From Nitrosopumilus sp. (GTDB taxonomy: Archaea; Thermoproteota; Nitrososphaeria; Nitrososphaerales; Nitrosopumilaceae), in NCBI GenBank assembly GCA_965218695.1, contig OZ244651.1:1728001-1792000 (forward strand): 64,000 nt of DNA, read 5' to 3'. How positions within the stretch are numbered: the stretch's first letter is position 1; each line of letters begins with the position of its first letter. Shown piece by piece: positions 12,078 through 43,410 of this stretch. The notes below the pieces were generated by a model. It was not told the DNA's origin and did not search any database. It was given only the letters and a program-made list of their open reading frames with translations. The position numbers and the translations under genes are program-made.

Positions 12078-13604
12078 CTACAGGACCGAGTCCTTTGTCT
12101 TAAAGACCCTCTTAAAGTACTCGGAAGGCTCTGCAGGCTCCTGGATGTCATTTGTGATGCCTGCCAGATTCTTGGCAAGGTTCTTCTTGTAGCCTATCTG
12201 CATCTGCCGCTGGATCTGAATTCTCTGGGCCTGCGGCGAGCCGGCGCCATGCATTGACTCGGTAAGATAGCCTACTGCGTTTCTGCCAAGCGTCATGTTC
12301 TCAATCAGTCTCAGAATCCTCATCCTGTTCTCAACGTCGGTGCCCTTTCTTCCTGCCAGGTACTTTTTGAGCAGCGGGCCGGCCTCGGGATGCCTAAAGT
12401 CCTTCTCGGATGGAAGCGTCACCACCAGTCCTCCTGCAATGTCCTGTGCAAGCCTGCTTATCTCATATGGGAACCGGGTCACGTTGTGCTTGCAGACCTG
12501 GGCGAGCATGTCATCGTTTAGATAGACGCCGGACTTCATCTTGTGTCCCTGGTATGATGATGCAATTCCTGCGGCAAATATGGTCTCGTTGAGGTGTGTC
12601 ATCTCGGTGATCTTGTCCTTTATGTGGGATACATTGGGGATTCCGTTGTAGTCGGCAATGGTGGCAGCCGCGCCTATCAGGACGTCTCCAAGTCCGGTCT
12701 TGCAGACGTAGCTCCTTCTGTGGTAGCAGGTAAAGCGCTCAATGAGCATCGATGCAAACTCGTACTCCCCGTCCATGAATATGTGCTCCCATGGAATAAA
12801 CACCCGATCGAGTACTATCAGTGCCTCCTGTCCGCCAAACTTTGCGTTGCCGTCATCAATGTCGCCCTCCTCCATGCTTCTCGTATCGCAGGACTGCCTG
12901 CCATAGATGTAGGTGATTCCCTCTGCGTCCGGCGGAATAGCCCCGACAACGCACCATTCCCTGTCGTTTTCAGTAAGTCTGACAGTAGGCATCAGTATTA
13001 TCCAGTGAGAGTTGATGCATCCGGTCTGGTGCGCCTTTGCGCCTGAGACATAGACGCCGTTCTCGTCCCTGTCCACCACTCGCGTGAACAGATCCGGATC
13101 CTCCTGTTCTGACGGACCCTTGCTTCGATCCCCCTTTGGATCCGTCATGGCGCCGCCGATCACAAGGTTCTCCCTCTGAACCATCTTTACAAACTCTAGA
13201 AACCGCGTATGGTAGTTGGTGCCGTGCTTTTGGTCGATCTCAAATGTAGTGGAATGCAGCGAGTTGAGTGCGTCCATCCCCACGCATCTCTGAAAGCATG
13301 TGCCCGTATTCTGGCCCAGTCTCCTCTGCATCTTGTTTTGCATGACCAGATCCTCTGCACTCTCTGCAATGTGCAGGAAACGGTTGATTCTGAGTCCGGT
13401 AAGTGAGGAGTCAGCAGATGCAAGGCCCTCTTCGCGTATTGCAAGGTCGTACGTCTCTGCCACTGCGTTGATTGACGGCCTTATCATGGGGTGATCCACG
13501 GGCTCCTTGACTAGTTCCCCAAACAGGTAGATCTTGAGATTGCGATTTCTAAGGCTCTGAATGTAATCTTCTCCGGTTCTGATGGTTTTCAATATGTTAG
13601 CCAT
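12078..13604 (-). CDS. abfD: 4-hydroxybutyryl-CoA dehydratase (HP/HB cycle)
   Basis: TGTCFQRCVGMD, GAMTDPKGDRS, GAKAHQTG, HRRSYVCK, ESMHGAGSPQAQ. Confidence 0.95.
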   Translation of the reverse strand: MANILKTIRTGEDYIQSLRNRNLKIYLFGELVKEPVDHPMIRPSINAVAETYDLAIREEGLASADSSLTGLRINRFLHIAESAEDLVMQNKMQRRLGQNTGTCFQRCVGMDALNSLHSTTFEIDQKHGTNYHTRFLEFVKMVQRENLVIGGAMTDPKGDRSKGPSEQEDPDLFTRVVDRDENGVYVSGAKAHQTGCINSHWIILMPTVRLTENDREWCVVGAIPPDAEGITYIYGRQSCDTRSMEEGDIDDGNAKFGGQEALIVLDRVFIPWEHIFMDGEYEFASMLIERFTCYHRRSYVCKTGLGDVLIGAAATIADYNGIPNVSHIKDKITEMTHLNETIFAAGIASSYQGHKMKSGVYLNDDMLAQVCKHNVTRFPYEISRLAQDIAGGLVVTLPSEKDFRHPEAGPLLKKYLAGRKGTDVENRMRILRLIENMTLGRNAVGYLTESMHGAGSPQAQRIQIQRQMQIGYKKNLAKNLAGITNDIQEPAEPSEYFKRVFKTKDSVL

Positions 13605-13743
13605 CCCATTCTATTCGTCTTTATGCTGTATAAATATTAGAGGTTATACGGGGATACGCGCATTCGTGCCATGGGTACGGGTAATATTGTATCATACGGC
13701 AGTCATGCACCTGCAGGCTTTATGCCCGGGAATGGGTTCTGGA

Positions 13744-15870
13744 TCAGAGGCCTATCCGGACATCCAGGATGCGGCACCCGCTGCCCTTCTCCATGACAAG
13801 GACCGGATTCATGTCAAGCTCCCTTATCTCCTCAAAGTCCGAGACCAGCTGGGAGAGTCTCTGGATGCACTCTGAGAGCTTGGCAGTGTCGGAGGGCTTC
13901 TCGCCACGGACCCCCTGAAGGAGCTTCTGGGTCTTGATCGAGGCAATCATGTCGTCTGCCTCCCTGTCGGTGACGGGGGCAAGTCTGAACGTGACATCCT
14001 TTAGTATCTCCACGTATATCCCTCCCATGCCAAGCATGATTACAGGACCGAATCCTAGCTCCTGCTTGGAGCCGATGATCATCTCCTTTCCTCCCTTGAC
14101 CATCTCCACAATCAGGACCCCCTTGATCTCGGCCTTGGGATCATACTTTATGGCGTTTGCAGTGACTGTCTCAAAGGCATCCCTCACCTGGTCATCGTCT
14201 GTAAGATTCACCATGACGCCGCCGGCATCTGACTTGTGGATGATCTGGGGGGATGCAATCTTCATCACCACGGGGTATCCTATCTTTCCTGCAACCTCTA
14301 CTGCCTCCTCTGGGTTCCGGGCAAGCGCGCTCTCTGGCAGCGGCAGGCCGTATGCCTTGAGCACCTCCTGTCCCTCTTCCTCGAGCAGGCTGATCCTGCC
14401 GTCCCTCTTGACTGCCGCAAAGACCTTTCTTGCCCTTGTGCGGTTTACCCTGAATCTGCGAATCGTCCCGTCCGCAGAGTCGACCCATTCTGAGAACCTG
14501 ATCATTGCTGCAAGCGTACGGATCGCCCCCTCTGCATAGGTGTAGTACGGGACGTTGCCGGCAGCCAGGATCTCCCTGTTGGTGATTCCCTCGTCAAGTC
14601 CCATCAGGCTTGCAAGCATCGTCTTTTTGTGCTTGCCGGACATCTTGACGATCACCCTTGCAAGCCCATCGTAGTCGAGCGTTCCGGAGGGGGTGCACAT
14701 TGAGATTACCGAGCCCACGTTTGGGTGCCTCAGGACATGGTCCAGCACGCCTGCAAACCGCTCAAAGTTGGCATCACCTACAATGTCGACCGGATTCCTG
14801 GAGCTTCCCCAGGGCGGAATGACAGCATCAATCTTCTCTCGGATGCTTGTAATGTCTGCCATCTTGATCTTCATCTTGGAGCATGCATCAGTCGAGATGA
14901 TTGCAGGCCCGCCTGCGTTGGATACTATAGCAAGGCCGCCCTTTGACGGAAGCGGCTGCTTGGAGAAGGCAGTGGCATAGTCAAACAGTTCCTCCATGGT
15001 GTCGACCCTGATCGCGCCGGACTGCTTGAGCAGGGCATCATAAATCTCATCAGAGCCCATAAGGGCCCCGGTGTGGGACATTGCAGCCTTGGCGCCCTCG
15101 GGGCTGCGTCCTGACTTGAGAACGAGGACGGGCTTTTTGAGATTCTTGGTAATGTTCCTGCAGACCTTGAGGAACTCCTGGCCGTCGCCCATGTCCTCAA
15201 GATACATCACTATGACCTCAGTCTGCTTGTGCTCTGCCAGAATCTTCATGACGTCGACTTCGCTCATTGCAGCCTTGTTTCCAAGGCTGACCACAGCAGA
15301 GAACCCTATGCCCTGTGCGCTTGCATCCTCCACTAGCGCCGCACAGATCGCGCCGCTCTGGGACACCAGGGCTATCTTTCCTGACTTGGGGGTGATCTTT
15401 AGGAACGTGGAGTTCATCATGGTTTTTGGATCAAGGTTCATCACCCCAAGGCAGTTTGGTCCGATAATCTGGATTCCGTATCTGCCGGCAATCTCCTTGA
15501 TCTGCTGCTCGCGTTTTGCGCCCTCCTCGTCGACCTCCTTGAAGCCGGCCGTGATAATTATGACTCCCCTAATCTTCTTCTTGCCGCACTCTTCTAGCAC
15601 GGATGCGACCAGGGTATTTTTAATGACGATTACTGCAAGATCCACCTGTTTGGGAACATCCAGGACGCTCTTGTAGGCCTTTCTGCCAAAGACCGTATCC
15701 CTTGATGGGCTGATGGGGTAGATGACTCCCTTGAATCCGTTCATTATGTTTGATGATATGGTGGCCCCCACGCTTCCCTTCTTGTCGGACGCACCGATTA
15801 TTGCAATCGACTTGGGGGAGAGGAACACGGATTTGGCCATGGGATATGATGGATCAGGAGATTCGCACAA
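13744..15870 (-). CDS. ADP-forming 4-hydroxybutyrate--CoA ligase (ACD family)
   Basis: GPNCLG, SQSGA, SHTGALMGS (phospho-His), NAGG, HKSDAGGV; adjacent to abfD as in Nitrosopumilus. Confidence 0.88.
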   Translation of the reverse strand: MCESPDPSYPMAKSVFLSPKSIAIIGASDKKGSVGATISSNIMNGFKGVIYPISPSRDTVFGRKAYKSVLDVPKQVDLAVIVIKNTLVASVLEECGKKKIRGVIIITAGFKEVDEEGAKREQQIKEIAGRYGIQIIGPNCLGVMNLDPKTMMNSTFLKITPKSGKIALVSQSGAICAALVEDASAQGIGFSAVVSLGNKAAMSEVDVMKILAEHKQTEVIVMYLEDMGDGQEFLKVCRNITKNLKKPVLVLKSGRSPEGAKAAMSHTGALMGSDEIYDALLKQSGAIRVDTMEELFDYATAFSKQPLPSKGGLAIVSNAGGPAIISTDACSKMKIKMADITSIREKIDAVIPPWGSSRNPVDIVGDANFERFAGVLDHVLRHPNVGSVISMCTPSGTLDYDGLARVIVKMSGKHKKTMLASLMGLDEGITNREILAAGNVPYYTYAEGAIRTLAAMIRFSEWVDSADGTIRRFRVNRTRARKVFAAVKRDGRISLLEEEGQEVLKAYGLPLPESALARNPEEAVEVAGKIGYPVVMKIASPQIIHKSDAGGVMVNLTDDDQVRDAFETVTANAIKYDPKAEIKGVLIVEMVKGGKEMIIGSKQELGFGPVIMLGMGGIYVEILKDVTFRLAPVTDREADDMIASIKTQKLLQGVRGEKPSDTAKLSECIQRLSQLVSDFEEIRELDMNPVLVMEKGSGCRILDVRIGL

Positions 15871-19243: not shown

Positions 19244-19693
19244 TCACTCGGGATTCCTCTCAAAGAAGAGTGCTGACTGCCTGAATCCCAGATTCCCGTA
19301 GAATTCGTGGGCATCTGCCCTCTGGTTTCCGGATTCCAGTCTCATCCTGTGGCATTCCTTCTTCCCTGCAATATGCGCACACCTGTCGACAAGCTTCTCC
19401 CCTATTCCCATTCCCCTGTACTCCGGGAGGACTACCAGTTCCGGGATGTACATCTCGGGGGTCTTTTGGTTGAGCCGTGGCAGCAGAATCATGCTCATCA
19501 TGCCCACGATCTTTACATCGTCGATCTCTGCCACAAGCACGTACTTGTCCTGGTCCCTGATGTATTCCCCGAGGCGCCTTCGAAACAGATCGACGTCGTC
19601 ATCCTCCTGCGGTTTTGGGCGTCCAAGCTCGTAGAGCAGTCCGAGTATGACAGGAACATCGGCATCGGTGCCATCCCTGATGAGGCAATTCAT
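19244..19693 (-). CDS. GNAT N-acetyltransferase
   Basis: LVVLPEYRGMGIGEKL (motif A), AHEFYGNLGF. Confidence 0.88.
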   Translation of the reverse strand: MNCLIRDGTDADVPVILGLLYELGRPKPQEDDDVDLFRRRLGEYIRDQDKYVLVAEIDDVKIVGMMSMILLPRLNQKTPEMYIPELVVLPEYRGMGIGEKLVDRCAHIAGKKECHRMRLESGNQRADAHEFYGNLGFRQSALFFERNPE

Positions 19694-19752
19694 AGGGTAG
19701 ACAAGTCGTCTCAGGTATAAAGCCCATCCCCTCGGGCAAGGCCGCCGCCGCA

Positions 19753-20523
19753 CTAGACCCTTGAAAAGAAGATCTCAAGGCATTCTGCGAACCGCCCGTT
19801 CAGTTTCTGAAGGCGGGTCTGGTCCATCTCGAGGGAATCCCCATCAAACCAGGACGGTGCCAGATACATGCTCCGGTTCATCTCAATCTGAATCCATGGT
19901 ATCGGGTTGTTGCCGTATGTCCTGGTTATGTAGCCCCCGTGGAACGGATCGTTAATGGAGACGTCCTTCCTGTCCACCTGGAACGACTCGGATATGCAGT
20001 CGGCCAGAAGATGCATCATCTCCTCAGACGAGGTCCTGCCGTCCCAGTTTGACATGCAGAATGCCGGCCTGCCGCTCTTGTTCCCGTCCGGGGAGACATC
20101 AGGCGCATGCGAGGCCATGGAGTGGCAGTCAAGGCACACCTGCACGTCCAGCTCCCGGACGCTCCTTTGGATCTCCCTATGGTACGGCATGTAGTACCTT
20201 CGAACCAGAAGGGACCTGAGGGACTCGTCAGGCTCGGCGCCGGCGCGGTATATGGGCCTCTGATGGCACGTGGCGCTCTTTATCAGGCCGTCAGGATTCT
20301 GCGGGGGCATGTCCTGAAGGGAGCGGTTCATGTCAACAAACGCCCGCGCAATGTCAGTCTTTACCACGTGCTGCACCATCCCCCCCAGGTCGTAAATCTC
20401 AGCCACAAACGGGTCAGAGTCATCAAAGAGATCCTTCTCAGTTATGCGCAGGCGGCCCCGCAGCTCCTGCGGTGCCGCGGTTCCCCCGTGGGGTATCGAC
20501 AGGAGCGCCGGCAGCGCCGTCAT
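19753..20523 (-). CDS. N-formylglutamate amidohydrolase family protein
   Basis: SIPHGG, RAFVDMNR, YYMPYH, LDCHSM, NDPFHGGYIT, IQIEMNRSMY. Confidence 0.9.
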   Translation of the reverse strand: MTALPALLSIPHGGTAAPQELRGRLRITEKDLFDDSDPFVAEIYDLGGMVQHVVKTDIARAFVDMNRSLQDMPPQNPDGLIKSATCHQRPIYRAGAEPDESLRSLLVRRYYMPYHREIQRSVRELDVQVCLDCHSMASHAPDVSPDGNKSGRPAFCMSNWDGRTSSEEMMHLLADCISESFQVDRKDVSINDPFHGGYITRTYGNNPIPWIQIEMNRSMYLAPSWFDGDSLEMDQTRLQKLNGRFAECLEIFFSRV

Positions 20524-22148
20524 TCCGGCCCCTCTGCTGTTCCGTCGCGCCTGACCTCGGCGACCCCCTGGAACCCCTCCCCGCTGTTCCTCTTCAGGAC
20601 TGCGTGTATTGCGCCCATAAAGAACGAGTACCTGTCCCGTACGTCTATCTTGTAGCCGGTCTTCTTCAGCTGTCTTATGATGTCAGAGGCATGCTCGTCT
20701 TTCTCTATGCTTACCTTTCCGTCAAGGGAGCAGTGGATTCTGGGCTTTGACATTGCCACATTGATCGGGTCGCTACCGTCAATCACGCGCGATATGAAAT
20801 GGCTCACGACTGAAAAGATTCTCGAGGAACCCGGGCTTCCCAGGACCATCCACGGCTCGTGGTTGTAAAAGATGATTGCAGGGGATACGGACGTCCAGGG
20901 GATCGAGTTCGGCCTGAGATAGAACGGGTGGTTCGGGTTCTCAAACTCAAAGGCGGACATGTAGTTGTTGTACAGAAATCCGAGGCCGTCGGCTGCGGCC
21001 TTTGAGCCGTACACCAGCTCGATGGACTGGGTGATGCCCACGGCGTTTCCCTCCCCGTCCATCACCGAAAGGTGCGTCGTATCCTCTATGTCCGGCGACT
21101 CCCTCAGCGGCAGGTCGGGATCGATAGAGTCCCGGATTGATTTGGAGAGGGATCTTGCAAACTTTCTGCTCAGGTGGGTCCTCTGGTCTATCTGGTGGTA
21201 TGTCACGGGGTTGAACTTTCTCTGCGTCCTGTACAGCAGCGCCTTCCGGAACGTCTCGGCTACAAAGTGGTACGACTGCGGATCCTTGCCTCTGAGAAAC
21301 GGCCTCTTCAGGTTTTCAAGCATCATCAGCACCAGCAGCATCGTATCGCCTGCGGAGGGGGGCGGCATGGTCGAGACCCTGATTCCGCGGTATCTTCTGC
21401 TGAGCGGCTTGCGTTCGACGGGTTCGGGTATCAGCGCAAGGTCCTCCAGGTGCAGAAACCCGCGGTTGATCCTCATGTCCTTGTCAATCAGCCTGGCGAT
21501 CATTCCGTGGTAGAATGAGCGGTAGCCGTTCTGTGATATGTACTTGAGGGTCTCTGCAAGATCCTCCTGGACAAACAGATCCCCGACGCCGTATGGCTCC
21601 ATGCCGTCCTTGAGAAAGTACCTTGCACCGGACTGGGATCCCACCCTGAAGAACTTTGCAAGGTTATCCACCTGCAGATCGTGCTGGAGTTGGGTTATCC
21701 TGTATCCGTTCCTTGCAATGCGGATTGCCGGCTCTGCCACGTCTGCCCAGCCCAGCCGCCCGTACGTCTCGCTGAGGTATCCCAGTGTCGCAACCGTGCT
21801 GGGAACAGTCGTTGCCTTGTATCCTATGAACCTGCGGGAGTGCTTCTCATAGAATGCTCTGTGCGCAAGGGACGGGGCCCTGCTTGAGCCGTCGACTGCT
21901 ATGGTCTTGCCGTCAATGCTCATGATGGCAAGGGACTGGCCGCCTATGCCGGATGACTGGGGCTCGCAGACTCCCAGCGCAAGGGCCGTGGCACATGCAG
22001 CATCGACTGCGTTTCCGCCCTTTTCAAGCATGCTCACCCCCGCCCTGGTGGCCTCGGGAAATGCAGAGGAGACCATTCCGCCCCGGGCAGCAGAGCACTT
22101 CTTGTCAGGCGACGGCCGGAACGAGTCCTCTATCTTTTCAATGTCCAT
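20520..22148 (-). CDS. ggt: Gamma-glutamyltransferase family protein
   Basis: GGNAVDAA, EPQSSGIGG, DTTHLSVMDGEGNAV (Thr nucleophile), GFLYNN, GSPGSSRI. Confidence 0.9.
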   Translation of the reverse strand: MDIEKIEDSFRPSPDKKCSAARGGMVSSAFPEATRAGVSMLEKGGNAVDAACATALALGVCEPQSSGIGGQSLAIMSIDGKTIAVDGSSRAPSLAHRAFYEKHSRRFIGYKATTVPSTVATLGYLSETYGRLGWADVAEPAIRIARNGYRITQLQHDLQVDNLAKFFRVGSQSGARYFLKDGMEPYGVGDLFVQEDLAETLKYISQNGYRSFYHGMIARLIDKDMRINRGFLHLEDLALIPEPVERKPLSRRYRGIRVSTMPPPSAGDTMLLVLMMLENLKRPFLRGKDPQSYHFVAETFRKALLYRTQRKFNPVTYHQIDQRTHLSRKFARSLSKSIRDSIDPDLPLRESPDIEDTTHLSVMDGEGNAVGITQSIELVYGSKAAADGLGFLYNNYMSAFEFENPNHPFYLRPNSIPWTSVSPAIIFYNHEPWMVLGSPGSSRIFSVVSHFISRVIDGSDPINVAMSKPRIHCSLDGKVSIEKDEHASDIIRQLKKTGYKIDVRDRYSFFMGAIHAVLKRNSGEGFQGVAEVRRDGTAEGPE

Positions 22149-22959
22149 ATAGATCCTTCCCGCAGTGGGGGCATTTGTTCCCGCCCTGCCCCCTCTTCCT
22201 TCTCAGCTCCTCGGTAAACGCAGATGCCATTATTCCCGCCGGAATGGCATACACTGCGATCCCAAGTATGGCAACCCCGCTGGCAATTACCTTGCCTAGG
22301 ACAGTGACAGGGTATGTGTCGCCGTACCCTATGGTAGTCAGCGTGACTATCCCCCACCACATCGATGCCGGAATGCTGGAGAAGACATCCGGCTGCGCTG
22401 CGTTCTCTGCATAGTACATCAGGCTGGAGGCAAAGATCACCATTATAAACAGGATAAAGAACGCAACAGACAGGTCGCCGGCCTTGGCACGCAGCACTGC
22501 GCCAAACGTATGCATGGAGTCCGAGTATCGGGCAAGTTTGAGGAGCCGGAAGAGCCGGAGCAGCCGGATTATTCTGATGAATCGAAGATCGACCACGACA
22601 AACGGCAGGAAGAACGGCAGTATGGCGGCCAAGTCGACGAGCATCATAGGGCTGAATACCAGCCGGAGCAGGGAGTACCTGGTGGTGCGGTGCTTTGGGT
22701 TCATCCGGTACACGACTATCCTCCCTGCGTACTCTGCAGTGAACACTATCACCGAGAATACCTCAAACGGGGTGAAAAAATAGCCGTACTCGTCCAGCAC
22801 CGACTCCTCAGTCTCAAGCATTACAAACAGGACGTTGACTACTATCATGGAGACGATAAATATATGAAACCCCCAGGTCGCCTTGTCCTTGGCGGTTCCC
22901 TCGAGTATCTCGTATGTGCGCAGGGTTGCCCTGTTAGCCAGGGTGCCAGACGCCGCCAC
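22138..22959 (-). CDS. 6-TM voltage-gated-type potassium channel
   Basis: S4-like RFIRIIRLLRLFRLLKLARY, filter TTIGYGD, C-terminal CPHCG; GTG start overlaps the corA stop. Confidence 0.88.
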   Translation of the reverse strand: MAASGTLANRATLRTYEILEGTAKDKATWGFHIFIVSMIVVNVLFVMLETEESVLDEYGYFFTPFEVFSVIVFTAEYAGRIVVYRMNPKHRTTRYSLLRLVFSPMMLVDLAAILPFFLPFVVVDLRFIRIIRLLRLFRLLKLARYSDSMHTFGAVLRAKAGDLSVAFFILFIMVIFASSLMYYAENAAQPDVFSSIPASMWWGIVTLTTIGYGDTYPVTVLGKVIASGVAILGIAVYAIPAGIMASAFTEELRRKRGQGGNKCPHCGKDLYGH

Positions 22960-24602
22960 TATACCCAGCTCCTCTTCTTGAACCACACCATCATCACGAC
23001 CACTATAACCAGCATGCCTGAAAGCATGACAAAGTAGCTTCCATCCCATGCCAGCTCCGGGATGTGCTGAAAGTTTGTCCCGTATATGCCGGCGATGAAC
23101 GTGATCGGGATGAATATGCTTGCAATTATCGTCAGGGTCTTCATGACCTCGTTCATCTTGTTGCTCACGCTGGAGAGGTAGGTGTCAAGCATCCCCCCTA
23201 CCATGTCCCGGAGCCCCTCGATGTTGTCCATCACCTGGACTGTGTGGTTGTAGACGTCGCGGAGGTATCTTCTTGTGGATTCGCGGACGATCTCAGACTC
23301 CATCCTGCCGAACCCGTCTATGACCTCCCTGAGCGGCCAGATGGACTTTCTCAGGGTCACCATCTCCCTCTTCAAGCTGTGGATGGTCTGCAGCGTCTGC
23401 GGGTTGGGATTTGTCATCAGCTCCTCTTCAAGCTGCTCGGACTGGATGCCTATCTTTTCCAGTATCACGTAATAGTAGTCGATTATGGCATCGGCCAGCG
23501 CATATGCAAGGTAGTCGCTTGTGCTCTCCCGTATACGTCCAAGGTTCTTTTCCAGCCTCTCCCGGATGTTGTCAAAGACGTCATCGTTGGTCTCCTGGAA
23601 CGACACCACGTAATCCTTCCCCACAACCAGGCTGACCTGCTCCATGAACAGGCGGTTGTTGGACAGGATGTGCGGCAGCTTGAGGATCATGTACAGGCAG
23701 TTGCCGTGATCGTCTATCCTTGGCCGCAGCTCGGTATTCATTATATCTGACTGCACGAGGCTGTGCAGCGCGTAGTGATCCCCGACCTTCTTGATGACAT
23801 CAGCATCATGCAGTCCGACTATGTTGGTCCATGTCACCCCGGACCGACCATCATCGGCAAAGCATTCCTCGACGGATTCTATCGTATTCCTGGAAAAGTT
23901 GTCCTTGTCAAACTTTATCTGGACTATGTCGACTTTGTCTACCAGCTTTGCCCCCACGTGCACCAGCTCGCCTGGCTGCAGCCCTATGGTCTCAGAGGAC
24001 GTCATGACATCGGCATGCCCCTTTCGGAGAATCTTCGAGAGATCCATCATGTTGATAAAGCCTGTATTCTGGGCAATCTGGGCAACCCCGGAGGTCCTGC
24101 TGACGATGCCCACTATTGCAAACCCGGCGATCATGGAGAACAGCAGGCTTATTCCAAGCGGCCCAAGGTCCCCGGCCACGGCCGACTGGTAGATTGCATG
24201 GACGTCGGTGGCATCACCGGCAGTCACCACGGAGCCTATCAGCAGGTCGATCAGGAAGAAGACGAACGATATCATCGCGCCCACGATTATGACGGTAAGC
24301 GGGGTGATCCTTGCCGGGATGTTGATGTTCTTTTCCTGCTTGTACGGCGAGAGGTATCTCTTGTTCTTTACGATGAGTATGGCAATCATGGTGATGATCA
24401 CCGTGGAGAGTATCCACCAGGCTATCACCCACAGTCCCTGGCCCGAGTCGGCCTGCTGTATCCCCCAGATCAGATCCTGGATGTTTCCGGTGAGGGGCAG
24501 CGACAGAAGGGAGGTTGCAGCGCCGACAAACATCTGGTAGACAAACGCAAACACAAATCCCAGAACCAGCCTGTTTACGACTATTCCTATTTGTGCCCTC
24601 AA
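22959..24602 (-). CDS. corA: CorA-family divalent cation transporter with extra N-terminal membrane domain
   Basis: GLQPGELVHVG, EQVSLV, YLRDVYNH, MNEVMKTLT, PITFIAGIYGTNF...PEL; about 170 extra residues with about 4 TM. Confidence 0.88.
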   Translation of the reverse strand: MRAQIGIVVNRLVLGFVFAFVYQMFVGAATSLLSLPLTGNIQDLIWGIQQADSGQGLWVIAWWILSTVIITMIAILIVKNKRYLSPYKQEKNINIPARITPLTVIIVGAMISFVFFLIDLLIGSVVTAGDATDVHAIYQSAVAGDLGPLGISLLFSMIAGFAIVGIVSRTSGVAQIAQNTGFINMMDLSKILRKGHADVMTSSETIGLQPGELVHVGAKLVDKVDIVQIKFDKDNFSRNTIESVEECFADDGRSGVTWTNIVGLHDADVIKKVGDHYALHSLVQSDIMNTELRPRIDDHGNCLYMILKLPHILSNNRLFMEQVSLVVGKDYVVSFQETNDDVFDNIRERLEKNLGRIRESTSDYLAYALADAIIDYYYVILEKIGIQSEQLEEELMTNPNPQTLQTIHSLKREMVTLRKSIWPLREVIDGFGRMESEIVRESTRRYLRDVYNHTVQVMDNIEGLRDMVGGMLDTYLSSVSNKMNEVMKTLTIIASIFIPITFIAGIYGTNFQHIPELAWDGSYFVMLSGMLVIVVVMMVWFKKRSWV

Positions 24603-25853
24603 TCAGTCTTTCCTCCGGCGTATGCGTATCCTGGTGGGCCTGTTCTTCTCCACCTGCTCTACGGTAAACTCTAGGGAATCTACAGATACAGAGTCGTCCG
24701 GTTTTGGTATGTCGCGGAGCCTTTCATGCAAAAGGCCGCTGAGTGTGGAATAGTCGTCGCCTGGGGGGATCTCTGTCTTGAAGTATCTGTTGATGGCATC
24801 GATCTCGATGTCGCCGTCGGCAAGTATCGTTGAAGAGTCCACCACGGCATACGGAAGACGCCGCAGATCAGTCTCGTCATAAATCTCGCCCACTATCTCC
24901 TCGATCACGTCCTCAAGGGTTACCAGCCCCTCGACTCCGCCAAACTCGTCAACTACTATTGCCATGTGGTTCTTTTCTGACTGCATCTGCCTGAGCAGGT
25001 CGCTTGTCCTCTTCTCCTGGGAGACGTAGATGGGTCTTCTGACCAGATCCTCAAGCGGGGTCGCATGAAGACTCGGATCCCTGAGATGCTGCAGCATGTC
25101 CCGTACGTGCAGGATCCCCATTATGTCGTCTGTGTCCCTGCCGTATATTGGAATCCTGGAGTGCCCCGTCTGGTGTATCAGGTCGGCTGCATCTGCAAGC
25201 AGGGTGTCCTTTTGCAGGCAGAACATCCTTGTACGCGGAACCATGACTGAGCGGATGACGTTGTGGTTGAATTCAAGCGCGCTCTGCAGCAGGTTCCTCT
25301 GGTCCAGTCCCAGTGCCTTGTCCCGGTGCCCCTGGTCTATTATCCCCCGAATCTCATCGCCGGTCAGTGCAGGCGGAAGATAGTCGCTTCCGGTGATTCG
25401 TATTATTCCCCGCGAGATCTTCTCCAGGATCCACACTGCAGGATAAAAGGCGTAGCTGAATGCCAGCAGTACCCGGGCAAACCTCAGGGAGACCTTTGTG
25501 GCGTTTGCGTTGCAGTATGTCTTGGGGGTGACCTCGCCAAATATGATTACAAGAAAGGTCATGATTCCCACGGCAATTCCCAGCCCGTTCTCCCCGAAGA
25601 TCTCGATGGACACGACAGTCGCAAGCGAGGCGGATCCTATGTTTACAAGGTTGTTTCCAAGGTTGACACTTGACATCATCCATCCGGGATTTGACTTTAG
25701 CTTTTGTAGGGAGCGGGCCCCCTTTGCGTTCTCCTTTACCAGGCGCCCGATCGTGGCCTGTGATGTGCCGACCAGTGCCACCTCGAGCCCGCTGAAGAAC
25801 CCTGAAAGGCCGATAAGGGCTGCAAGGGATGCCAGTGCAAGTTCAAGGGCCAT
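24603..25853 (-). CDS. CNNM/CorC (HlyC) family protein (DUF21 + CBS pair + CorC)
   Basis: SGFFSGLEVAL, GNNLVNI, IFGEVTPK, HSRIP, VVDEFGGVEGLVTLEDVIEEIVGEI. Confidence 0.92.
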   Translation of the reverse strand: MALELALASLAALIGLSGFFSGLEVALVGTSQATIGRLVKENAKGARSLQKLKSNPGWMMSSVNLGNNLVNIGSASLATVVSIEIFGENGLGIAVGIMTFLVIIFGEVTPKTYCNANATKVSLRFARVLLAFSYAFYPAVWILEKISRGIIRITGSDYLPPALTGDEIRGIIDQGHRDKALGLDQRNLLQSALEFNHNVIRSVMVPRTRMFCLQKDTLLADAADLIHQTGHSRIPIYGRDTDDIMGILHVRDMLQHLRDPSLHATPLEDLVRRPIYVSQEKRTSDLLRQMQSEKNHMAIVVDEFGGVEGLVTLEDVIEEIVGEIYDETDLRRLPYAVVDSSTILADGDIEIDAINRYFKTEIPPGDDYSTLSGLLHERLRDIPKPDDSVSVDSLEFTVEQVEKNRPTRIRIRRRKD

Positions 25854-28009
25854 TACGCAGAACACCTGTAGATTACCGAGGTGAGCAGCGAGGCCCTCTC
25901 GACGATGCTGTCATGGACTATGTATTCCTGGGGGGTGCGGTACATGTGGCCTATCGGGCCAAAGCCGTCAAGGGACGGAAGCTCGGTGGGAACGTTGCAG
26001 ATGTCCGATGACATTATCTGCTCGTGCCGCTTGATCTTGATCTCGTGCTTGCGGGCAAGGTCCTCGACCATCCCATAGAATGCCGTATCCGATTCCACCT
26101 CGATTACCGGCGGCCTGCTCTGGATCTTCTGGATGGTAACGTCGAGTTTTTGTGCGCCGGCCTCGTGCTTCTTCATGATGTCCCGTATCCTGGCATCAAG
26201 GAGCGTTCCCAGCTGGGACGTCTTGTAGCTGCATATGAGTGAGAGGGTGGCATAGTTTGGGGTGTGGCCGTGCGTTCCCTTGGCCACAACAGAGGTGGTC
26301 TTTACCCTGTAGTCCCTTTCGTCCCTTGATATCTTTTCTATTGCAGATATCTTCTTTGCCAGTGAAGGAATTATTCCATGTATGTCCGATGAGGTGTTGG
26401 GTGCCGTGAAACGGATCTGGTAGTCGTCCCTCCCGTAGCATGTTGTGATTATTCCCCCGTCCTTGCTGGCAGACTTGAGGCCTACGATATACTTTGATGT
26501 CTTGGAGTAGTGTTTTACCAGGTTCTTGCTGAACTTTCCTCCCAGGCTGTCGTCGGTGGTGAGAAGTATGGCGCACCTTACCTTGCGCAGTCTTTTTGCA
26601 AAGCGGAGCGCATGCAGGGCGCTCAGCATCACTGCCAGCCCGCCCTTGCTCTCGGCTATTCCGGAGCCAAACACCTTGTAGTCGTCCTCGTGGTAGTTTA
26701 CCAGCTCGCTTGGACCGTAGTGGGTGTCGGTATGGGAGACTATCAGGATGTCGTTTTTGAGTTCGTTGTGGTTTTTGAAATAGCGAAAGTCCCCCACGTC
26801 AAACTGCCTGTGGACGTACTCCCTGAATCCCAGGTGCCTTAGCCTGCGGGACATGATCTCCCCGAGCTTGTTTACGTTGTCTATGTTGTATACGTGGGTG
26901 TTGAGGTTTACAAGATCCTTCAGCGTCTCCTTTATGCTGTGCAGGTGCCCCCTCAGGTACGTCCTTGCAACCACGCGCAGGGGCTGGGTCATGTCCGGCT
27001 CGTCTTCCAGGTGGTGGGAGGCACCAAAGTAGCGCATCACGGCAACGTCAAGAATCTTGTTGATTAGCGAATCATACGTGTATCCGGTTGTCTTTGCAGC
27101 ATGGTACAGCGAGCCACCCATCCCCAGGCTGGCCATCGAGTTTAGCTCAAGGATGTAGAGGTTCTCGTCCGGGTCCATCCGAAGATCCACCCTGCTGTAG
27201 TCGTTGAGCCCCAGGCACCGAAATGCCTGCATGCACAGCCGCTTCATCTCCCAGGTCTTCTCGTCTGAGAGTTGCGCCGGACACGTCTTGTCTGTCCCGC
27301 CCTTCTTCATCTTGTCAGATATTGTCTGTATCTGGTTTGGATTATCCAGGTTTATCTCTACTATCGGAAGGACGTCTATGTTGGGATTGTTCCCTATCAC
27401 CCCCACTGCAAACTCCCGGCCCGGGATGAACTGCTCCACCAGGATCTCCTGCTGGAACTTTTCAATCTGTTTCTGCACCGCCCTTCTGAGGGAGTCCCAG
27501 TCGTCCACCACCTCCATCCCCATGGAGGTGGATTCCAGCTTTGGCTTTACAATTACGGGAAATGCCAGATCATCAAAGTCATCCTCAGGGGTCTTGAATT
27601 CCCAGAATCCCGGAGTGGGGATGTCATTCCTTTGCAGGATTATCTTGGTCATGACCTTGTCCTGTACGATTGCATGCCCCGCAGGCCCCGAGCCTATGTA
27701 TGGAATGCCAAGCATCTCCATCATTGCCGGGACGTGGGTGTACCTGTTCTGTCCCTGAATTCCATATGCCATGTTAAAGACCATCCCCGGGGAGTCCCCG
27801 GCAACCACCTTTGGCATGAACTCGCGCAGCTCGTCTGCCATGTGGATGTCCCCCTCGATCACCTTGACTGTGTGTCCGCCCTTTTCCAGTGCCCGTGCGA
27901 CGCGCTCGACTGCCTTGGTGCTGTAGTGCTCCTTGGTGACTGTGCCAAAGACGTTGATTACATCATTTGGGTTTATCTCTTTTTCATTATAGATTAGCGC
28001 GACCTTCAA
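25853..28009 (-). CDS. D-Ala-D-Ala-ligase-like ATP-grasp enzyme fused to an M20 peptidase-like domain
   Basis: GIPYIGSG, DKVMTK, PVIVKP..STSMG, EQFIPGREF, RVDLR, LELNS; C-terminal M20 fold (SHTDT, GSGIAESKGG, LDGFGP). Confidence 0.85.
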   Translation of the reverse strand: MKVALIYNEKEINPNDVINVFGTVTKEHYSTKAVERVARALEKGGHTVKVIEGDIHMADELREFMPKVVAGDSPGMVFNMAYGIQGQNRYTHVPAMMEMLGIPYIGSGPAGHAIVQDKVMTKIILQRNDIPTPGFWEFKTPEDDFDDLAFPVIVKPKLESTSMGMEVVDDWDSLRRAVQKQIEKFQQEILVEQFIPGREFAVGVIGNNPNIDVLPIVEINLDNPNQIQTISDKMKKGGTDKTCPAQLSDEKTWEMKRLCMQAFRCLGLNDYSRVDLRMDPDENLYILELNSMASLGMGGSLYHAAKTTGYTYDSLINKILDVAVMRYFGASHHLEDEPDMTQPLRVVARTYLRGHLHSIKETLKDLVNLNTHVYNIDNVNKLGEIMSRRLRHLGFREYVHRQFDVGDFRYFKNHNELKNDILIVSHTDTHYGPSELVNYHEDDYKVFGSGIAESKGGLAVMLSALHALRFAKRLRKVRCAILLTTDDSLGGKFSKNLVKHYSKTSKYIVGLKSASKDGGIITTCYGRDDYQIRFTAPNTSSDIHGIIPSLAKKISAIEKISRDERDYRVKTTSVVAKGTHGHTPNYATLSLICSYKTSQLGTLLDARIRDIMKKHEAGAQKLDVTIQKIQSRPPVIEVESDTAFYGMVEDLARKHEIKIKRHEQIMSSDICNVPTELPSLDGFGPIGHMYRTPQEYIVHDSIVERASLLTSVIYRCSA

Positions 28010-28407: not shown

Positions 28408-28482
28408 GGGCTCATAGTCCAGGTCGGTTATGACGTCGCCCTTACACGGCGAAGATCCGGGGTTCAAATCCCCGTGGGCCCA
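28408..28482 (+). tRNA. tRNA-Val (TAC)
   Basis: Acceptor GGGCTCA/TGGGCCC-A; anticodon arm TCGCC-CTTACAC-GGCGA; T loop TTCAAAT. Confidence 0.95.
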
Positions 28483-28539
28483 CATATACCTTCATTGAGT
28501 CCGAACACGCAAGAGAATCTACAAATTTGATGACATCCC

Positions 28540-29574
28540 ATGGAATTCGTGAGAGCCACCATCGACTTTTTTTCAAGCCCCATCGGACTGGGCCACATAA
28601 CTAGGGATATTGCAATTGCGGCAAACCTCGGGGACGTCTCTACAAACTTTGTCTCAGGGGGCGGCGCAATCAAGATCCTGGACAGCCTGGGCATCGAGTC
28701 CACAGACGCATACGTTCCACCTCCGTTCGTGGTGGAAAACGGCACCCTCAGAAACCCGGCAAGATGGCTGTGGAACTACTACAGGTACTACAAGAGATGC
28801 AAGGATATCTCACGCGGCATACTGCTAAGGGACAAACCCGACATGGTCGTCAGCGACGAGGACTTTGCCTCGCTTGCAAACGCCCAGGACATGGGTATTC
28901 GGACCATACTTGTCACAGACATCCTTGAGACCCGCTTTACAGGCGGCCTGGCCTCAATAGTAGAAAAAAGGATGAACAAGTCGATGCACAGCATCATGAA
29001 AAAAGCAGAGGCAGTCATCGTTCCCGAACACGGGGACGACAGGGACAACATCAGGATGGTCGGCCCGATCGTAAGGCGCATAGACACCCCAAGGGACAAG
29101 CTGCGGGAAAGGTTCGGGTTTGAAAGAGAGACCATACTGGTATCAATAGGCGGAACCGATGCAGGAATATTTCTGATTGAAAAGGTACTGGAGGTGATTC
29201 CAAAAATTGATCCCGAACTGGATGTCGTCCTGGTGTCCGGTCCCGCAGTAAGCAGAAGATTCAGGGGGGTCAGGGATCTTGGATGGGTGGACAACCTGCA
29301 CGAACTGATCCTTGCCTCAGACGTCCTGATATCACTTGCAGGAAGGTCCACCATGGACGAGGCCCAATCCTACGGCACTCCTGCCATATTCATTCCCATA
29401 AAGGGGCACTTTGAGCAGGAGGACAATGCAAGAAGGCATGGGTTCTCCTTTGGGGATCTCAAAAGACTGGATGTGTTGGTTGCAGAAAAGTTCCAAGAAC
29501 GCAGGAACCCGGTTCAGGCCAGCGGCGGTGCAGAGAATGCAGCCAGGATAATACTGCAGGCATTCAAAGATTAA
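28540..29574 (+). CDS. GT-B glycosyltransferase (GT28/MurG-like)
   Basis: GLGHITR, VGPI, SIGG, AGRSTMDE, HFEQEDNA. Confidence 0.85.
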   Translation: MEFVRATIDFFSSPIGLGHITRDIAIAANLGDVSTNFVSGGGAIKILDSLGIESTDAYVPPPFVVENGTLRNPARWLWNYYRYYKRCKDISRGILLRDKPDMVVSDEDFASLANAQDMGIRTILVTDILETRFTGGLASIVEKRMNKSMHSIMKKAEAVIVPEHGDDRDNIRMVGPIVRRIDTPRDKLRERFGFERETILVSIGGTDAGIFLIEKVLEVIPKIDPELDVVLVSGPAVSRRFRGVRDLGWVDNLHELILASDVLISLAGRSTMDEAQSYGTPAIFIPIKGHFEQEDNARRHGFSFGDLKRLDVLVAEKFQERRNPVQASGGAENAARIILQAFKD

Positions 29575-29603: not shown

Positions 29604-31019
29604 ATGACAAGACTGGTCGTAGCCAAGTTCGGCGGCAGTGCCATTGGCCAGGACGGCGCATCCATACCCCAGATTGTAAGGCGAATCGGTCAGATGGCAA
29701 GGGACGCCAAGGTGATTGCGGTGTTTTCAGCACCACTAACCATCCACAACGAAAAGAGACGCTCCCTTACAGACGTGGTACTGGAGCAGGGCAGAAACGC
29801 CGAGACAGGAACCGTCCCGTCCCTGAACATGGCAGAATCGGCCTACCAGAAGATCCTGGACATGGTCAGCACAACACACAGGGACGAGTGCAGGGAGATG
29901 ATCGCCTCACACCTGGCAAAGGCGCAAGAGGCGCTGGATGAGGCCTATAAGAATAAAAGGTTTGCAGACGAGACACGCGCAAGGGCGCTGGCATTCTCAG
30001 GAGAGATCCTGATGTCCCACGTAATGAGATATATCCTGAACAGTAACAACATGCAGACGGATTCGGTGGGGTTTGACGACTGGCCGATAATCACCGATGA
30101 CAACGTAGAGTCGGCCAACTTTGTGGCCTCAGAATCCAGAAAGAGGATGGGCAGGATAACAGAGATGGTAAGGGACAATGCGATAGTTGCCATCGGCGGA
30201 TTCATCGGAAAGACGGCAGGCGGAACCGTCACCACGTACGAGCGGGGGGGCACCGACAGGACGGCAGTGGACCTTGGAATACTCTTCCACTGCATGTATG
30301 ATACCAGCGTGGACTTTGAAAAGGACAGCGCCGTGGTATCGGCTGATCCGAAGGTGGTACGGGAACATCTAAGGGACGTCCCACACATGTCATACAATGA
30401 GGCGCGGCTTGCAGGAATGTTTGGAATGAAGATTCTGGACCCAATCGCGATAAAGGAGATTGTGGAGAACGGCGTGGACATGCCAATGACCATAACGGAC
30501 ATGAACCGTCCTGAGAGGATCACCACCATCCAGAGGATGCCTGACGTGCAGGGGACGGATCCCATCAAGATAGTGGCCGGAAAGGGAAACTGTGCAATAT
30601 TTAGGATCGAGGCCCGCCTCGTTCAAAGGCTGCTTGCATCCCTGGGAAACGACAAACGCTACAGCGAGTTTGTGATACTCTCGCCGTTCATCAAGGACGA
30701 CATAGAGTTCTCCAGGATACTGTTCCTTGACGGGGACTATGTCAGGAGGAATGAAAAGTATCTGCTCAGCTTTGATCCGCTTGCGACCATAAGGTATGAC
30801 AGGGGCGTGATCACCCTGATCGGCGATGACATGTGGAAGGTGCAGAAGGTTGCCTCAAGGACCAGTTCAAGGGTAGGCCAGGAGGGGCTCAACATACTGA
30901 ACATGGACGCCCAAGAGGAGACCTCCCGGATAATCATAGTGATCGAGGATGCGGGGGACAGCATCAAAAGGGCAATCATCGGGATCCACCAAGAGATTAC
31001 TGAGATTAATTCGAGTTAA
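29604..31019 (+). CDS. lysC: Aspartate kinase
   Basis: VAKFGGS, VFSA, GFIG, ERGGTDRTA, SADPK, MSYNEA, FGMKILDP, ACT-like C-terminus. Confidence 0.85.
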   Translation: MTRLVVAKFGGSAIGQDGASIPQIVRRIGQMARDAKVIAVFSAPLTIHNEKRRSLTDVVLEQGRNAETGTVPSLNMAESAYQKILDMVSTTHRDECREMIASHLAKAQEALDEAYKNKRFADETRARALAFSGEILMSHVMRYILNSNNMQTDSVGFDDWPIITDDNVESANFVASESRKRMGRITEMVRDNAIVAIGGFIGKTAGGTVTTYERGGTDRTAVDLGILFHCMYDTSVDFEKDSAVVSADPKVVREHLRDVPHMSYNEARLAGMFGMKILDPIAIKEIVENGVDMPMTITDMNRPERITTIQRMPDVQGTDPIKIVAGKGNCAIFRIEARLVQRLLASLGNDKRYSEFVILSPFIKDDIEFSRILFLDGDYVRRNEKYLLSFDPLATIRYDRGVITLIGDDMWKVQKVASRTSSRVGQEGLNILNMDAQEETSRIIIVIEDAGDSIKRAIIGIHQEITEINSS

Positions 31020-31496: not shown

Positions 31497-32411
31497 ATGG
31501 AAGAAGTTGGAACGATATGGATGAACGGCAGCATGGTGCCCTTTAGGGACGCAAAGGTCCACGTCCTGACGCACGCACTGCACTACTCCACATCGGTGTT
31601 TGAGGGAATCCGGTGCTATGACACGCCTGACGGCTCTGCCATATTCAGGCTGCCTGAACACGTTGACAGGTTCTTCAGGTCTGCCAAGATGTACTCTATG
31701 AAGATGGAGTTTTCCAAGGAGGAGATTACCGATGCCATCATCGACACTGTCAGGGCCAGCGGACTCAGGGAGGCATACATCAGGCCCCTGGCATACTACG
31801 GGTACGGGCATATGGGGCTGACCCCCACGCAGAACAAGGTGGACGTGGCAGTTGCATGCTGGGAGTGGAAGATGGGCGAGACTGATGCAGGCAAGTTCTC
31901 CGGGGCAAGATGCAAGGTCTCCAGCTGGGCAAAGATCGATTCCAGATGCCAGCCCATGCAGGCAAAGGCCGCCTCAAACTATGCAAATGCCGTACTTGCA
32001 AGGATGGAGGCGCTCAACAACGGATACGACGAGGCAGTAATGCTAAACCTGCACGGAAAGGTCGTAGAGTGCAGCGTGGAGAACATCTTTATCGTAAAGG
32101 ACTCTGTCATACTGACGCCGCCGCTTTCTGCAGGAGGGCTAAACGGCATAACAAGGAACAGCCTGCTCCAGATCGTCGAAGGGGACGGCGGGAAGATACA
32201 GGAGAGGGATCTTGACAGGGACGACTTGTATGATGCAGACGAGATATTCATGACGGGCACCGCAGCCGAGGTAAAGTCAGTCACCCAGGTTGACGAGGTA
32301 ACGATAGGGGACGGAGAGGTTGGGGAGACCACCAAGAGACTGCAGGGACTGTTTACGGATGCCGTAATGGGCAGGAACCAGAAGTTCCGCTCGTGGCTGA
32401 GATTTATCTGA
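31497..32411 (+). CDS. ilvE: Branched-chain amino acid aminotransferase
   Basis: HALHYSTSVFEGIR, YIRP, AKAASNY, GITR, FMTGTAAEV. Confidence 0.95.
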   Translation: MEEVGTIWMNGSMVPFRDAKVHVLTHALHYSTSVFEGIRCYDTPDGSAIFRLPEHVDRFFRSAKMYSMKMEFSKEEITDAIIDTVRASGLREAYIRPLAYYGYGHMGLTPTQNKVDVAVACWEWKMGETDAGKFSGARCKVSSWAKIDSRCQPMQAKAASNYANAVLARMEALNNGYDEAVMLNLHGKVVECSVENIFIVKDSVILTPPLSAGGLNGITRNSLLQIVEGDGGKIQERDLDRDDLYDADEIFMTGTAAEVKSVTQVDEVTIGDGEVGETTKRLQGLFTDAVMGRNQKFRSWLRFI

Positions 32412-35236: not shown

Positions 35237-35240
35237 GTCC

Positions 35241-36982: not shown

Positions 36983-37127
36983 GTCCCATCTTTATTAACA
37001 CCATATATAAGTTTAATAATTATTATTATAAATTCTATATTTTTAATCATTTATTGTCTGCTGTAAATATAAAAATTATTAAGATTATCTAGCAAGTTTA
37101 AATAATGATTAACAAGAATACCAACAG

Positions 37128-39388: not shown

Positions 39389-39389
39389 A

Positions 39390-43207: not shown

Positions 43208-43410
43208 CCAGATTCAATTCCTCAATTATCTGCCCTTGCATCTCAATCGTCTGCTTGAGCTTGATGTTCTCAGTCTTGAGATCCGTGTACATCTTTTTGA
43301 GTTCAGCCTGGCTTTTCACATCGGGTTTGGATTACCATCCTATTTGGATCTGTGGTTTGCACAAAATTTACCCAAGAGTGAACTGAATTAGGCACGACGT
43401 GAACACTTAC
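43208..43410 (-). repeat. 203-bp tandem duplication of the IS66 left end
   Basis: 43208-43410 repeats 43005-43207, including the terminal IR. Confidence 0.9.

Follow-up and report, generated by a model that had tools for sequence, protein, structure and literature searches.

A conserved ligase-GGT-FGase gene triad and the cation-channel genes in its predicted operon in Nitrosopumilus

Introduction

What would a D-Ala-D-Ala ligase-like enzyme join in an archaeon, a host without murein, and why does its gene stand in line with genes of cation transporters and amide hydrolases? This question is raised by a gene cluster in a stretch of 64,000 nucleotides (nt) from a Nitrosopumilus genome, referred to here as the window. 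Seven open reading frames (ORFs) lie on the minus strand across positions 19244-28009 of the window, and six of them (19753-28009) overlap or abut according to the ORF list and the sequence. In the order of reading, the six encode a fusion of a Ddl-like ATP-grasp ligase to a degenerate M20 domain, a CNNM/CorB-type transporter, a long channel of the CorA family, a voltage-sensor-type K+ channel (Kv channel), a GGT-family hydrolase and an FGase-family amidohydrolase; a GNAT acetyltransferase gene follows. These family assignments had been proposed in an earlier note made from the sequence alone, and Pfam and NCBIfam agree with them for all seven genes. The same note took the host for a thaumarchaeon, which fits the names Nitrosopumilus or Nitrosarchaeum carried by its relatives.

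The cluster is a genuine module, conserved and as yet uncharacterised. It is best explained as a three-enzyme cytoplasmic cassette of ligase, GGT and FGase homologues, with cation-channel genes inserted into the predicted operon in this archaeal lineage. New in the window are the three channel/transporter genes inside the triad operon and the specificity shown by the long CorA. The Nitrosopumilaceae rank with the most abundant nitrifiers of the sea, sediments and sponges, and little is known about how they handle salt, Mg2+ and K+ other than by ectoine. A cassette that is common to distant bacteria and joined with Mg2+/K+ channel genes in this family offers a testable entry to a metabolite, perhaps a compatible solute or counter-ion of a new class. 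The cultured family member Nitrosopumilus ureiphilus makes experiments feasible.

Conservation of the ligase-GGT-FGase triad

Conservation of the cluster was followed at increasing distance: in 24 other species genomes of the same genus, in 16 genomes that each represent a different further family of the order, in 30 species loci, several of the poorer ones ending at contig edges, in 12 loci from other genera of the family (46-55% ligase identity), and in 80 distant loci (about 30% ligase identity) on bacterial-type contigs, obtained by a metagenome scan seeded with distant fusions. Within the genus, the full-length ligase was found in 11 of the 24 genomes with 55-94% identity. GGT and FGase occur in an identical set of ten genomes, all of them ligase-positive; in the eleventh ligase-positive genome (G024), the ligase lies on a 5.9-kb contig that ends inside CorA. 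Neither the ligase nor the FGase was found in the 16 genomes representing other families (0/16 each), and GGT-family genes are present in seven of these. The cassette is accessory within the family: 65 of its 301 genomes carry the ligase, spread over 14 of the 27 genera, and two genera have it in 0/37 genomes each.

Among the 30 species loci, GGT is present in 20, and FGase and the long CorA in 17 each. The Kv channel was found in 11 of them, and 10 have a close CNNM. At least one transporter was found in 20 loci, all six genes in four and none of them in another four. The clustering of these genes goes beyond chance, since they are found side by side in many species with 54-94% ligase identity. 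Outside the genus, ligase, GGT and FGase genes are contiguous in 10 of the 12 loci from other genera of the family, and the ligase stands alone in two. Full-length fusions with identities as low as 29% were recovered from a representative library, among them one named from Gemmatimonadota, and the Atlas lists fusion clusters labelled Bacillota and Pseudomonadota. The distant loci include 45 with GGT, 37 with FGase and 36 with both hydrolases; where at least 3 kb of sequence is available on both sides, both hydrolases are present in 20 of 26 loci.

The 534 ORFs of the 41 distant loci of at least 9 kb were clustered, and no further genuine family recurred in more than six loci; the functional unit is therefore made up of the ligase and the GGT and FGase homologues. 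One apparent family of 781 amino acids (aa) in seven distant loci turned out to be an antisense shadow of the ligase gene, an artefact of ORF picking. The conserved core is the three-enzyme triad, not the six-gene operon. The latter had been put forward as the unit, and this has to be given up: 10 of the 12 loci from other genera contain none of the three transporter types, and CorA occurs in only 4 of the 80 distant loci. The accompanying claim, that the enzymes co-occur with the transporters in a conserved manner, stands in part, as the neighbourhood survey does not refute it but most triads are without transporters.

Additional copies of cluster genes were also observed. One genome (G006:C4) contains two full-length ligase fusions (L016 and L017), with 78-79% identity to the window copy; one heads a complete six-gene cluster, and the second has only a CNNM gene after it. 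In locus L035, a single ligase gene lies amid three GGT-family genes, which are 58-69% identical to that of the window, and a CNNM-CorA-Kv block is found 4.7 kb beyond the ligase/GGT genes.

Gene layout of the cluster

The overlapping or abutting junctions described in the earlier note could be read directly from the sequence (Table 1). TAATG at 25853 joins the ligase stop with the ATG start of CNNM, for which an in-frame GTG at 25865 provides an alternative. The TTG start of CorA (24602) directly abuts the TGA of CNNM at 24603, and the TAG of CorA overlaps a GTG at 22959 (TAGTG). This GTG is the likely start of the K+ channel; relatives can be aligned no further upstream than residue 37 of the longer ORF. 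The channel stop overlaps the GGT ATG by 11 nt, and ATGA at 20523 forms the overlap between GGT stop and FGase start. The ligase itself starts with TTG, giving MKVA... as its homologues do, and the TATA-box-like motif upstream of it is a possible promoter of the operon.

Table 1. Features of the cluster in the window; the source genome measures 2.63 Mb, is 99.99% complete and has 52.8% G+C.
Feature	Position	Strand	Evidence or remark
TATA-box-like TTTTAAA	28047..28053	-	38-44 nt upstream of ligase start
Ddl-like ATP-grasp ligase / degenerate M20 fusion	25853..28009	-	Pfam, NCBIfam, AF2, Foldseek
CNNM/CorB-type transporter	24603..25865	-	CNNM transmembrane domain, 2 CBS, CorC_HlyC (Pfam)
Long CorA-family channel, 547 aa	22959..24602	-	Pfam, NCBIfam
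Voltage-sensor-type K+ channel, six transmembrane segments	22138..22959	-	Ion_trans 2.9e-30 (Pfam)
GGT-family Ntn hydrolase	20520..22148	-	G_glu_transpept 1e-108, 364.7 bits (Pfam)
FGase-family amidohydrolase (N-formylglutamate-amidohydrolase-like)	19753..20523	-	FGase 6e-49 (Pfam)
GNAT acetyltransferase	19244..19693	-	GNAT 4.5e-18 (Pfam)

The GNAT gene had been placed about 60 bp downstream of the six genes, and 59 nt were measured between the FGase TAG and the GNAT ATG (19693). It does not belong to the conserved module: among the surveyed loci, GNAT is kept at the cluster only in the two nearest relatives (L013/L014, equivalent to L026/L027), and it is a lineage-specific neighbour.

The ligase-M20 fusion

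The ATP-grasp half of the fusion covers about residues 1-330 and the M20/carboxypeptidase-G2-like half about residues 345-718, matching Dala_Dala_lig_C (1.4e-30) and Peptidase_M20 (2e-10) in Pfam. The PDB sequence matches of the ligase half are all Ddl enzymes (best 1.8e-30, phmmer). Foldseek searches with the AF2 model of the fusion (pLDDT 88.5) matched Ddl with TMt up to 0.88 and, for the M20 half, carboxypeptidase G2 (CPG2) with TMt 0.73-0.74 and E 4e-27; the poly(aspartate) hydrolase PahZ2 was also matched.

Residue conservation was scored over 57 family sequences, 15 close and 42 distant, and Ddl residues were mapped by alignment to the 306-aa Ddl of Y. pestis. The equivalents of K215, R255, D257, E270 and N272 (E. 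coli DdlB numbering), which we take to be the ATP-/Mg-binding and catalytic residues, are kept in 55-57 of the 57 sequences. Tyr216 of the omega loop, which presumably selects D-Ala as the second substrate of Ddl, is replaced by Met in the window protein; the 15 close sequences have M, K or V at this position, and most of the 42 distant ones have T. His63 of Ddl is Tyr in the window ligase. Moreover, the fusion stays below every NCBIfam Ddl cut-off (169.1 versus 243 bits and 148.3 versus 245.65 bits). The earlier view that the enzyme is no canonical D-Ala-D-Ala ligase is borne out by this score and by the variable Tyr216 position, and the ligase half appears to be an active amide ligase with a predicted substrate other than that of Ddl. 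Compared with DdlB, DdlA and VanA, it has the fold and the ATP-/Mg-/catalytic residues in common, but differs in being fused to an M20-like domain and partnered by GGT and FGase instead of mur genes.

The M20 half matches CPG2, a zinc peptidase cutting C-terminal glutamate off N-acyl-glutamates, also in sequence (6e-11), and shares H112 and the fold with a catalytic and a lid domain. However, D141 is replaced by E, E175 by D, E176 by S and E200 by K, which amounts to three of the four alignable metal ligands plus the catalytic Glu. These positions are not conserved over the 57 sequences, and the E200 position is mostly K or R. The position of H385, which we place by the H-x-x-x-E motif and not by direct alignment, is presumably R or Y here. 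Because the metal ligands and the catalytic Glu are lost, a di-zinc peptidase site is unlikely and the M20 half is probably non-catalytic and not a peptidase. It may perhaps serve as a binding module for an anionic ligand. The ATP-grasp/M20 fusion described earlier thus holds for both folds, but not for a working hydrolase in the M20 half. The fusion exemplifies a peptidase fold retained as a non-catalytic partner of a ligase.

The nearest relatives of the ATP-grasp domain without M20 (P0171, P0176, P0177 and P0186; 41-44% identity) are fused to a 7TM_transglut membrane domain, and others are tandem double Ddl-like proteins of 560-724 aa. A second, stand-alone Ddl-like ATP-grasp gene of 337 aa, 27% identical to the ligase half of the fusion, is located elsewhere in the genome and overlaps a GNAT gene convergently. 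This pair of genes (G000:C1:503969-505583; locus L140:4970-6584) has an rve integrase gene and two DDE_Tnp_4 transposase genes as its neighbours on the flanks.

The GGT and FGase homologues

The catalytic Thr357 of the GGT homologue aligns with T391 of the E. coli enzyme and is kept in all 26 distant cluster-type homologues. GGT has neither a signal peptide nor a transmembrane segment, and ligase, GGT and FGase are all without hydrophobic membrane segments; the three enzymes are therefore predicted to be cytoplasmic. The score of GGT against TIGR00066 is 348.2, below the cut-off of 357.85. In the substrate pocket, R114, N411, Q430 and D433 of E. coli GGT are replaced by S, E, Y and A, respectively, and these replacements are conserved in 21-26 of the 26 distant homologues. 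According to a review (PMC8062742), the alpha-carboxylate is bound by R114, a position taken by Ser in those GGTs of extremophiles that act as hydrolases only; Asp433/445 binds the alpha-amino group, and its replacement abolishes transpeptidation and admits glutaryl substrates; and Bacillus GGT has E at the position of N411. By these features the cassette GGT can be regarded as a distinct subfamily. The value of the pocket as a cassette-specific marker is weakened by non-cluster archaeal GGT homologues, which also lack R114 and D433.

The motifs shared between the FGase and the solved FGase 2q7s do not vary among 30 sequences, and a profile search matched 2q7s with 1.1e-18. Its AF2 model (pLDDT 94.2) was matched by VIA to 2q7s with Z 25.4 (root-mean-square deviation 2.5 over 242 aligned residues) and to 2odf with Z 21.7. 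The next matches of the model are poly-gamma-glutamate hydrolases with Z 10.5, which indicates a common fold only. Both hydrolases look competent from their residues and models. Against the HutG equivalog TIGR02017, the FGase reaches 105 with a cut-off of 278.75. Histidine catabolism had been discounted in the earlier note and is ruled out here as an explanation of the FGase, because a search of the whole 99.99%-complete genome found no match to the urocanase family.

The transporter genes and their neighbours

The CorA protein has a complete CorA domain at residues 250-547 (TIGR00383 273.3 versus a cut-off of 200.75; Pfam 7e-64) with hydrophobic C-terminal segments at 490-508 and 523-541, and is of an unusual long form with 4-5 additional hydrophobic segments at its N-terminus. 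Its signature is YGTNF instead of YGMNF, and YGTNF is present in 24 of 24 close matches, some contigs being counted twice. The housekeeping CorA of the genome has YGMNV; the long CorAs of L149 and L150 and the CorAs beside bacterial triads have YGMNF. The long CorA was found in 9 of the 24 other genomes of the genus, all nine ligase-positive, and an ordinary CorA of about 345 aa (23-27% identity) in 23 of the 24. The Kv channel possesses the S4 arginine repeat and a TTIGYGD filter. It is present in eight of the 24 genomes, seven of them ligase-positive, with one copy containing stop codons; one genome (G020) has the Kv channel and no detectable ligase. The CNNM, CBS and CorC_HlyC domains all score above the Pfam cut-offs, no equivalog cut-off being reached, and the protein is a probable exporter of Mg2+ or organic cations. 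A CNNM paralogue with 59% identity is encoded elsewhere in the genome.

The transporters are additions that arose within Nitrosopumilaceae, and their link to the triad looks real. They were recruited more than once, with at least two gene orders. In the first, the transporters lie between ligase and GGT as in the window. In the second, the order is ligase-GGT-FGase-CNNM-CorA (L149), and CorA is convergent in L150. In G023 and G021 the transporters are divergent or dispersed. Two K+ channel fragments are left between ligase and GGT in the nearest relative of the window (G002; locus L013, G002:C1:417500-433500). Among the bacterial loci, L124 contains FGase followed by an MscK-like mechanosensitive channel and CorA, MscK-like genes were also found at L096 and L071, L074 contains a P-type cation ATPase together with CorA, and L088 a 491-aa CorA.

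The neighbours within about 10 kb of the ligase were surveyed in 34 archaeal loci, three of which extend other loci. The recurrent ones are a Na+/H+ exchanger with CBS and DUF6659 (11 loci each), a short CNNM (eight), Usp (seven), and an MscS-like gene and a glutamate-type SDF symporter (five each). In G021, ligase, GGT-FGase and Kv-CorA are scattered across about 26 kb, and CNNM, Usp, a 2-TM K+ channel, an SDF symporter, two Na+/H+ exchangers and CDF are interspersed among them. In G023, ectABCD with an MscS-like ORF and Usp is located 4-8 kb from the cluster. The idea that the cassette complements ectoine, in that ligase-positive genomes would lack ectC, was rejected: true ectC was found in 2 of 25 genomes, both ligase-positive.

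Proposed function and alternatives

Our preferred reading, which we hold tentatively and at a little less than even confidence, is that the cassette both forms and cleaves a small glutamate-type amide which serves to balance salt and cations; the glutamyl-peptide cycle suggested in the earlier note is of the same kind. The ligase, with ATP, Mg2+ and probably K+ as in other Ddl enzymes, would join an amino acid to a glutamate-type acceptor and so form a small amide or peptide. The CPG2-like domain, with former metal ligands changed to Lys/Arg, would bind the anionic glutamate-like moiety. The two hydrolases would dismantle the product, one at a gamma-linked bond and the other at an N-acyl-glutamate-type bond. 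The product may be an organic solute or counter-ion, and its pool would be set jointly with Mg2+ (long CorA, CNNM) and K+ (Kv channel) during shifts of salt or cations. Ddl enzymes are activated by monovalent cations, and a direct route from K+ to ligase activity would therefore exist; PDB titles list Ddl complexes with K+, Rb+ and Cs+. The coupling to ions looks real, backed as it is by the overlapping transporter/enzyme junctions, which couple these genes translationally, and by the confinement of the long CorA to ligase-positive genomes within the genus.

Several points weigh against this reading. The assignment to glutamate is drawn from family names (CPG2, FGase, GGT) and from neighbouring genes. 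The acyl group may not be a plain gamma-glutamyl group, because of the changes R114 to S, Q430 to Y and D433 to A in GGT. R114 and D433 are also absent, with a different signature, in six of six non-cluster GGT homologues of related archaea, so the deviation of the pocket is not specific to the cassette. The ligase occurs alone in L030, L054, L154 and L158. The genomes of the genus are kin, and the phyletic counts therefore overstate independence. Most triads are without a transporter, as CNNM occurs in only one of the 80 distant loci (CorA in the four given above) and, within about 9 kb, all three types are missing from the 10 loci of other genera. Finally, the nearest relative G002 (94% ligase identity) kept the enzymes and is without CNNM and CorA, which looks like a recent decay of the transporter part.

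An alternative that keeps the link to ions and changes the acceptor is the control of organic cations. Polyamines are acylated by glutathionylspermidine synthetase and gamma-glutamyl-polyamine synthetases; here the ligase would acylate a polyamine or other amine, the hydrolases would release it, and its pool would be kept in balance with Mg2+ and K+, the other main cations of the cytoplasm. Every partner is a cation system (CorA, CNNM, Kv, Na+/H+ exchangers), and CNNM also matches the model of the polyamine exporter PaeA with 144 bits, below the cut-off. A passage of PMC6529630 proposes an FGase-family enzyme as gamma-glutamyl-amide hydrolase in a gamma-glutamylation pathway of Streptomyces. 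However, no polyamine gene is conserved beside the triad in the bacterial or archaeal neighbour surveys, and the GGT pocket is without the residues that bind the free gamma-glutamyl head group of a gamma-glutamyl-polyamine. We consider this alternative unlikely.

It is unlikely to the same degree that no functional coupling exists, and that triad and transporters are separate functions co-inherited on an accessory salt/ion island with shared regulation at most. Overlapping stops and starts place the transporter genes between the enzyme genes, none of the ligase-negative genomes of the genus contains the long CorA (its carriers are 9/9 ligase-positive), the same transporter types recur in different order in L149 and L150, and genes of CorA, MscK-like channels and a P-type ATPase flank the triad in distant bacterial contigs. 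These observations argue for coupling. The absence of transporters from the triad in most lineages, the patchy accessory distribution (65/301 genomes, 14/27 genera), the loss of transporters with retention of the enzymes in G002, and the spread of the G021 genes over about 26 kb amid other ion genes are what would be expected from the island.

A somewhat less probable explanation is salvage or catabolism, in which the hydrolases degrade imported gamma-glutamyl or N-acyl-glutamate compounds for glutamate or ammonia and the ligase has a side role in re-activation or trapping. Ammonia oxidisers would profit from organic nitrogen. Two amide hydrolases stand against one ligase in the cassette, and 5 of the 34 archaeal loci have a glutamate-type SDF symporter no more than 10 kb away. 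But the most constant member, and usually the first gene, is the ATP-consuming ligase; no peptide importer is conserved nearby in the neighbour surveys; and all three enzymes are predicted to be cytoplasmic.

Improbable in our view is a tagging of proteins or peptides, in which the ligase, like RimK, LysX and tubulin ligases, would attach an amino acid at the C-terminus or a side chain of a protein, the M20 domain would hold the target and the hydrolases would erase the tag. Pairs of ATP-grasp and M20 proteins occur in LysW carrier pathways. Relatives of the ATP-grasp domain with about 41-44% identity are fused to the 7TM_transglut domain of Rlo-type systems. In RimK/RimB and RloABC, a glutamate ligase is matched by a peptidase of its own, according to PMC11957051. 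Tagging is opposed by the type of the ligase, which is that of Ddl and not of RimK, and by the neighbour surveys, since no carrier or target gene recurs by the triad in bacteria or archaea.

Just as improbable is a reading in which the ligase product would act in the cytoplasm as a small signal instead of a bulk solute and be reset by the two hydrolases. The product would then bind the long CorA, CNNM (through its CBS domains) or the Kv channel and set the fluxes of Mg2+ and K+. This logic is comparable to that of glutathione-gated Kef and of the control of K+ transport by c-di-AMP. If true, it would constitute a metabolite-gated circuit of cation homeostasis in archaea and bacteria.

A glutathione-like gamma-glutamyl cycle of thiol metabolism, with GshB-like ligation, cleavage by GGT and the M20 half as Cys-Gly dipeptidase, is rejected as very improbable, because neither a GCS2-type nor an E. 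coli-type glutamate-cysteine ligase (gshA) was found in the 99.99%-complete genome; GGT, Ddl-like ligase and M20 fold do make up the parts list of such a cycle, and GshF fusions contain a Ddl-like ligase, but the M20 metal site is lost and the GGT is predicted to be cytoplasmic with an altered pocket.

Relation to known systems

Judged by their sequences, the enzymes fail membership of Ddl, active M20, canonical GGT and HutG on the defining features of each. Literature searches found no paper describing the cassette, in line with the earlier statement that no characterised pathway with such a layout is known; Iyer et al. (2009) on amidoligases may cover related neighbourhoods. By logic, the nearest analogue is the NAGGN operon (asnO-ngg-PA3461) of Pseudomonas and Sinorhizobium, described in a passage of PMC8070244 as osmotically induced and encoding a non-ribosomal dipeptide-forming enzyme and a peptidase. 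A small glutamine/glutamate-type peptide and a peptidase gene in the same operon are the points of comparison. The GNAT beside the ligase in the window is a further likeness, yet this GNAT is not conserved. Ngg is a different enzyme, and no sequence relation to the window enzymes turned up in the analyses; the window cluster has channels and no AsnO, whereas the NAGGN operon contains no channels.

By architecture, RimK/RimB and RloABC are nearest, each consisting of an ATP-grasp ligase and reversing hydrolases. A passage of PMC11957051 links RloABC to osmotic stress tolerance, with Rlo mutants failing under hypo-osmotic stress. These systems differ from the cassette in their RimK-type ligases, retropepsin-like peptidases and ribosomal-protein or unknown targets, and such genes are not in the window cluster. 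A layout with solute-synthesis and channel genes side by side is present in the same genus, where ectABCD is accompanied by the MscS-like ORF in G023; it differs from the cluster in its enzymes and product, and the window channels are for Mg2+/K+ and lie between the enzyme genes. Widderich et al. (2016) reportedly described ectABCD with an adjacent MscS-type channel gene in Nitrosopumilus.

Genomic context of the window

Divergently upstream of the cluster, on the plus strand, are found a tRNA-Val (28408-28483), an MJ1255/MurG-like glycosyltransferase gene (28540-29574), the gene of a 471-aa aspartate kinase (29604-31019) and a class IV aminotransferase gene (31497-32408). The adjacency of glycosyltransferase and aspartate kinase is kept only in the two nearest relatives. 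A metal-uptake operon (ZnuA/ABC-3/ABC_tran) with a divergent NikR-like regulator gene lies at 34385-37508.

A dense block of transposase genes occupies 38126-50674, with four of the IS66 family, two DDE_Tnp_1 and one DDE_3. Two IS66 ORFs of 468 aa with identical Pfam scores lie on opposite strands (41713-43116 and 47108-48511), and between them a third IS66 ORF (43895-45298) and an HNH endonuclease gene (45453-46868) were found. Further transposase genes are located at 3931-5088, 8020-9063 and 55127-56437. On the minus strand at 12081-15870, the window encodes an HpaB-family (4-hydroxybutyryl-CoA-dehydratase-like) protein and an ADP-forming acyl-CoA synthetase, which we take to be typical of the carbon-fixation cycle of ammonia-oxidising archaea.

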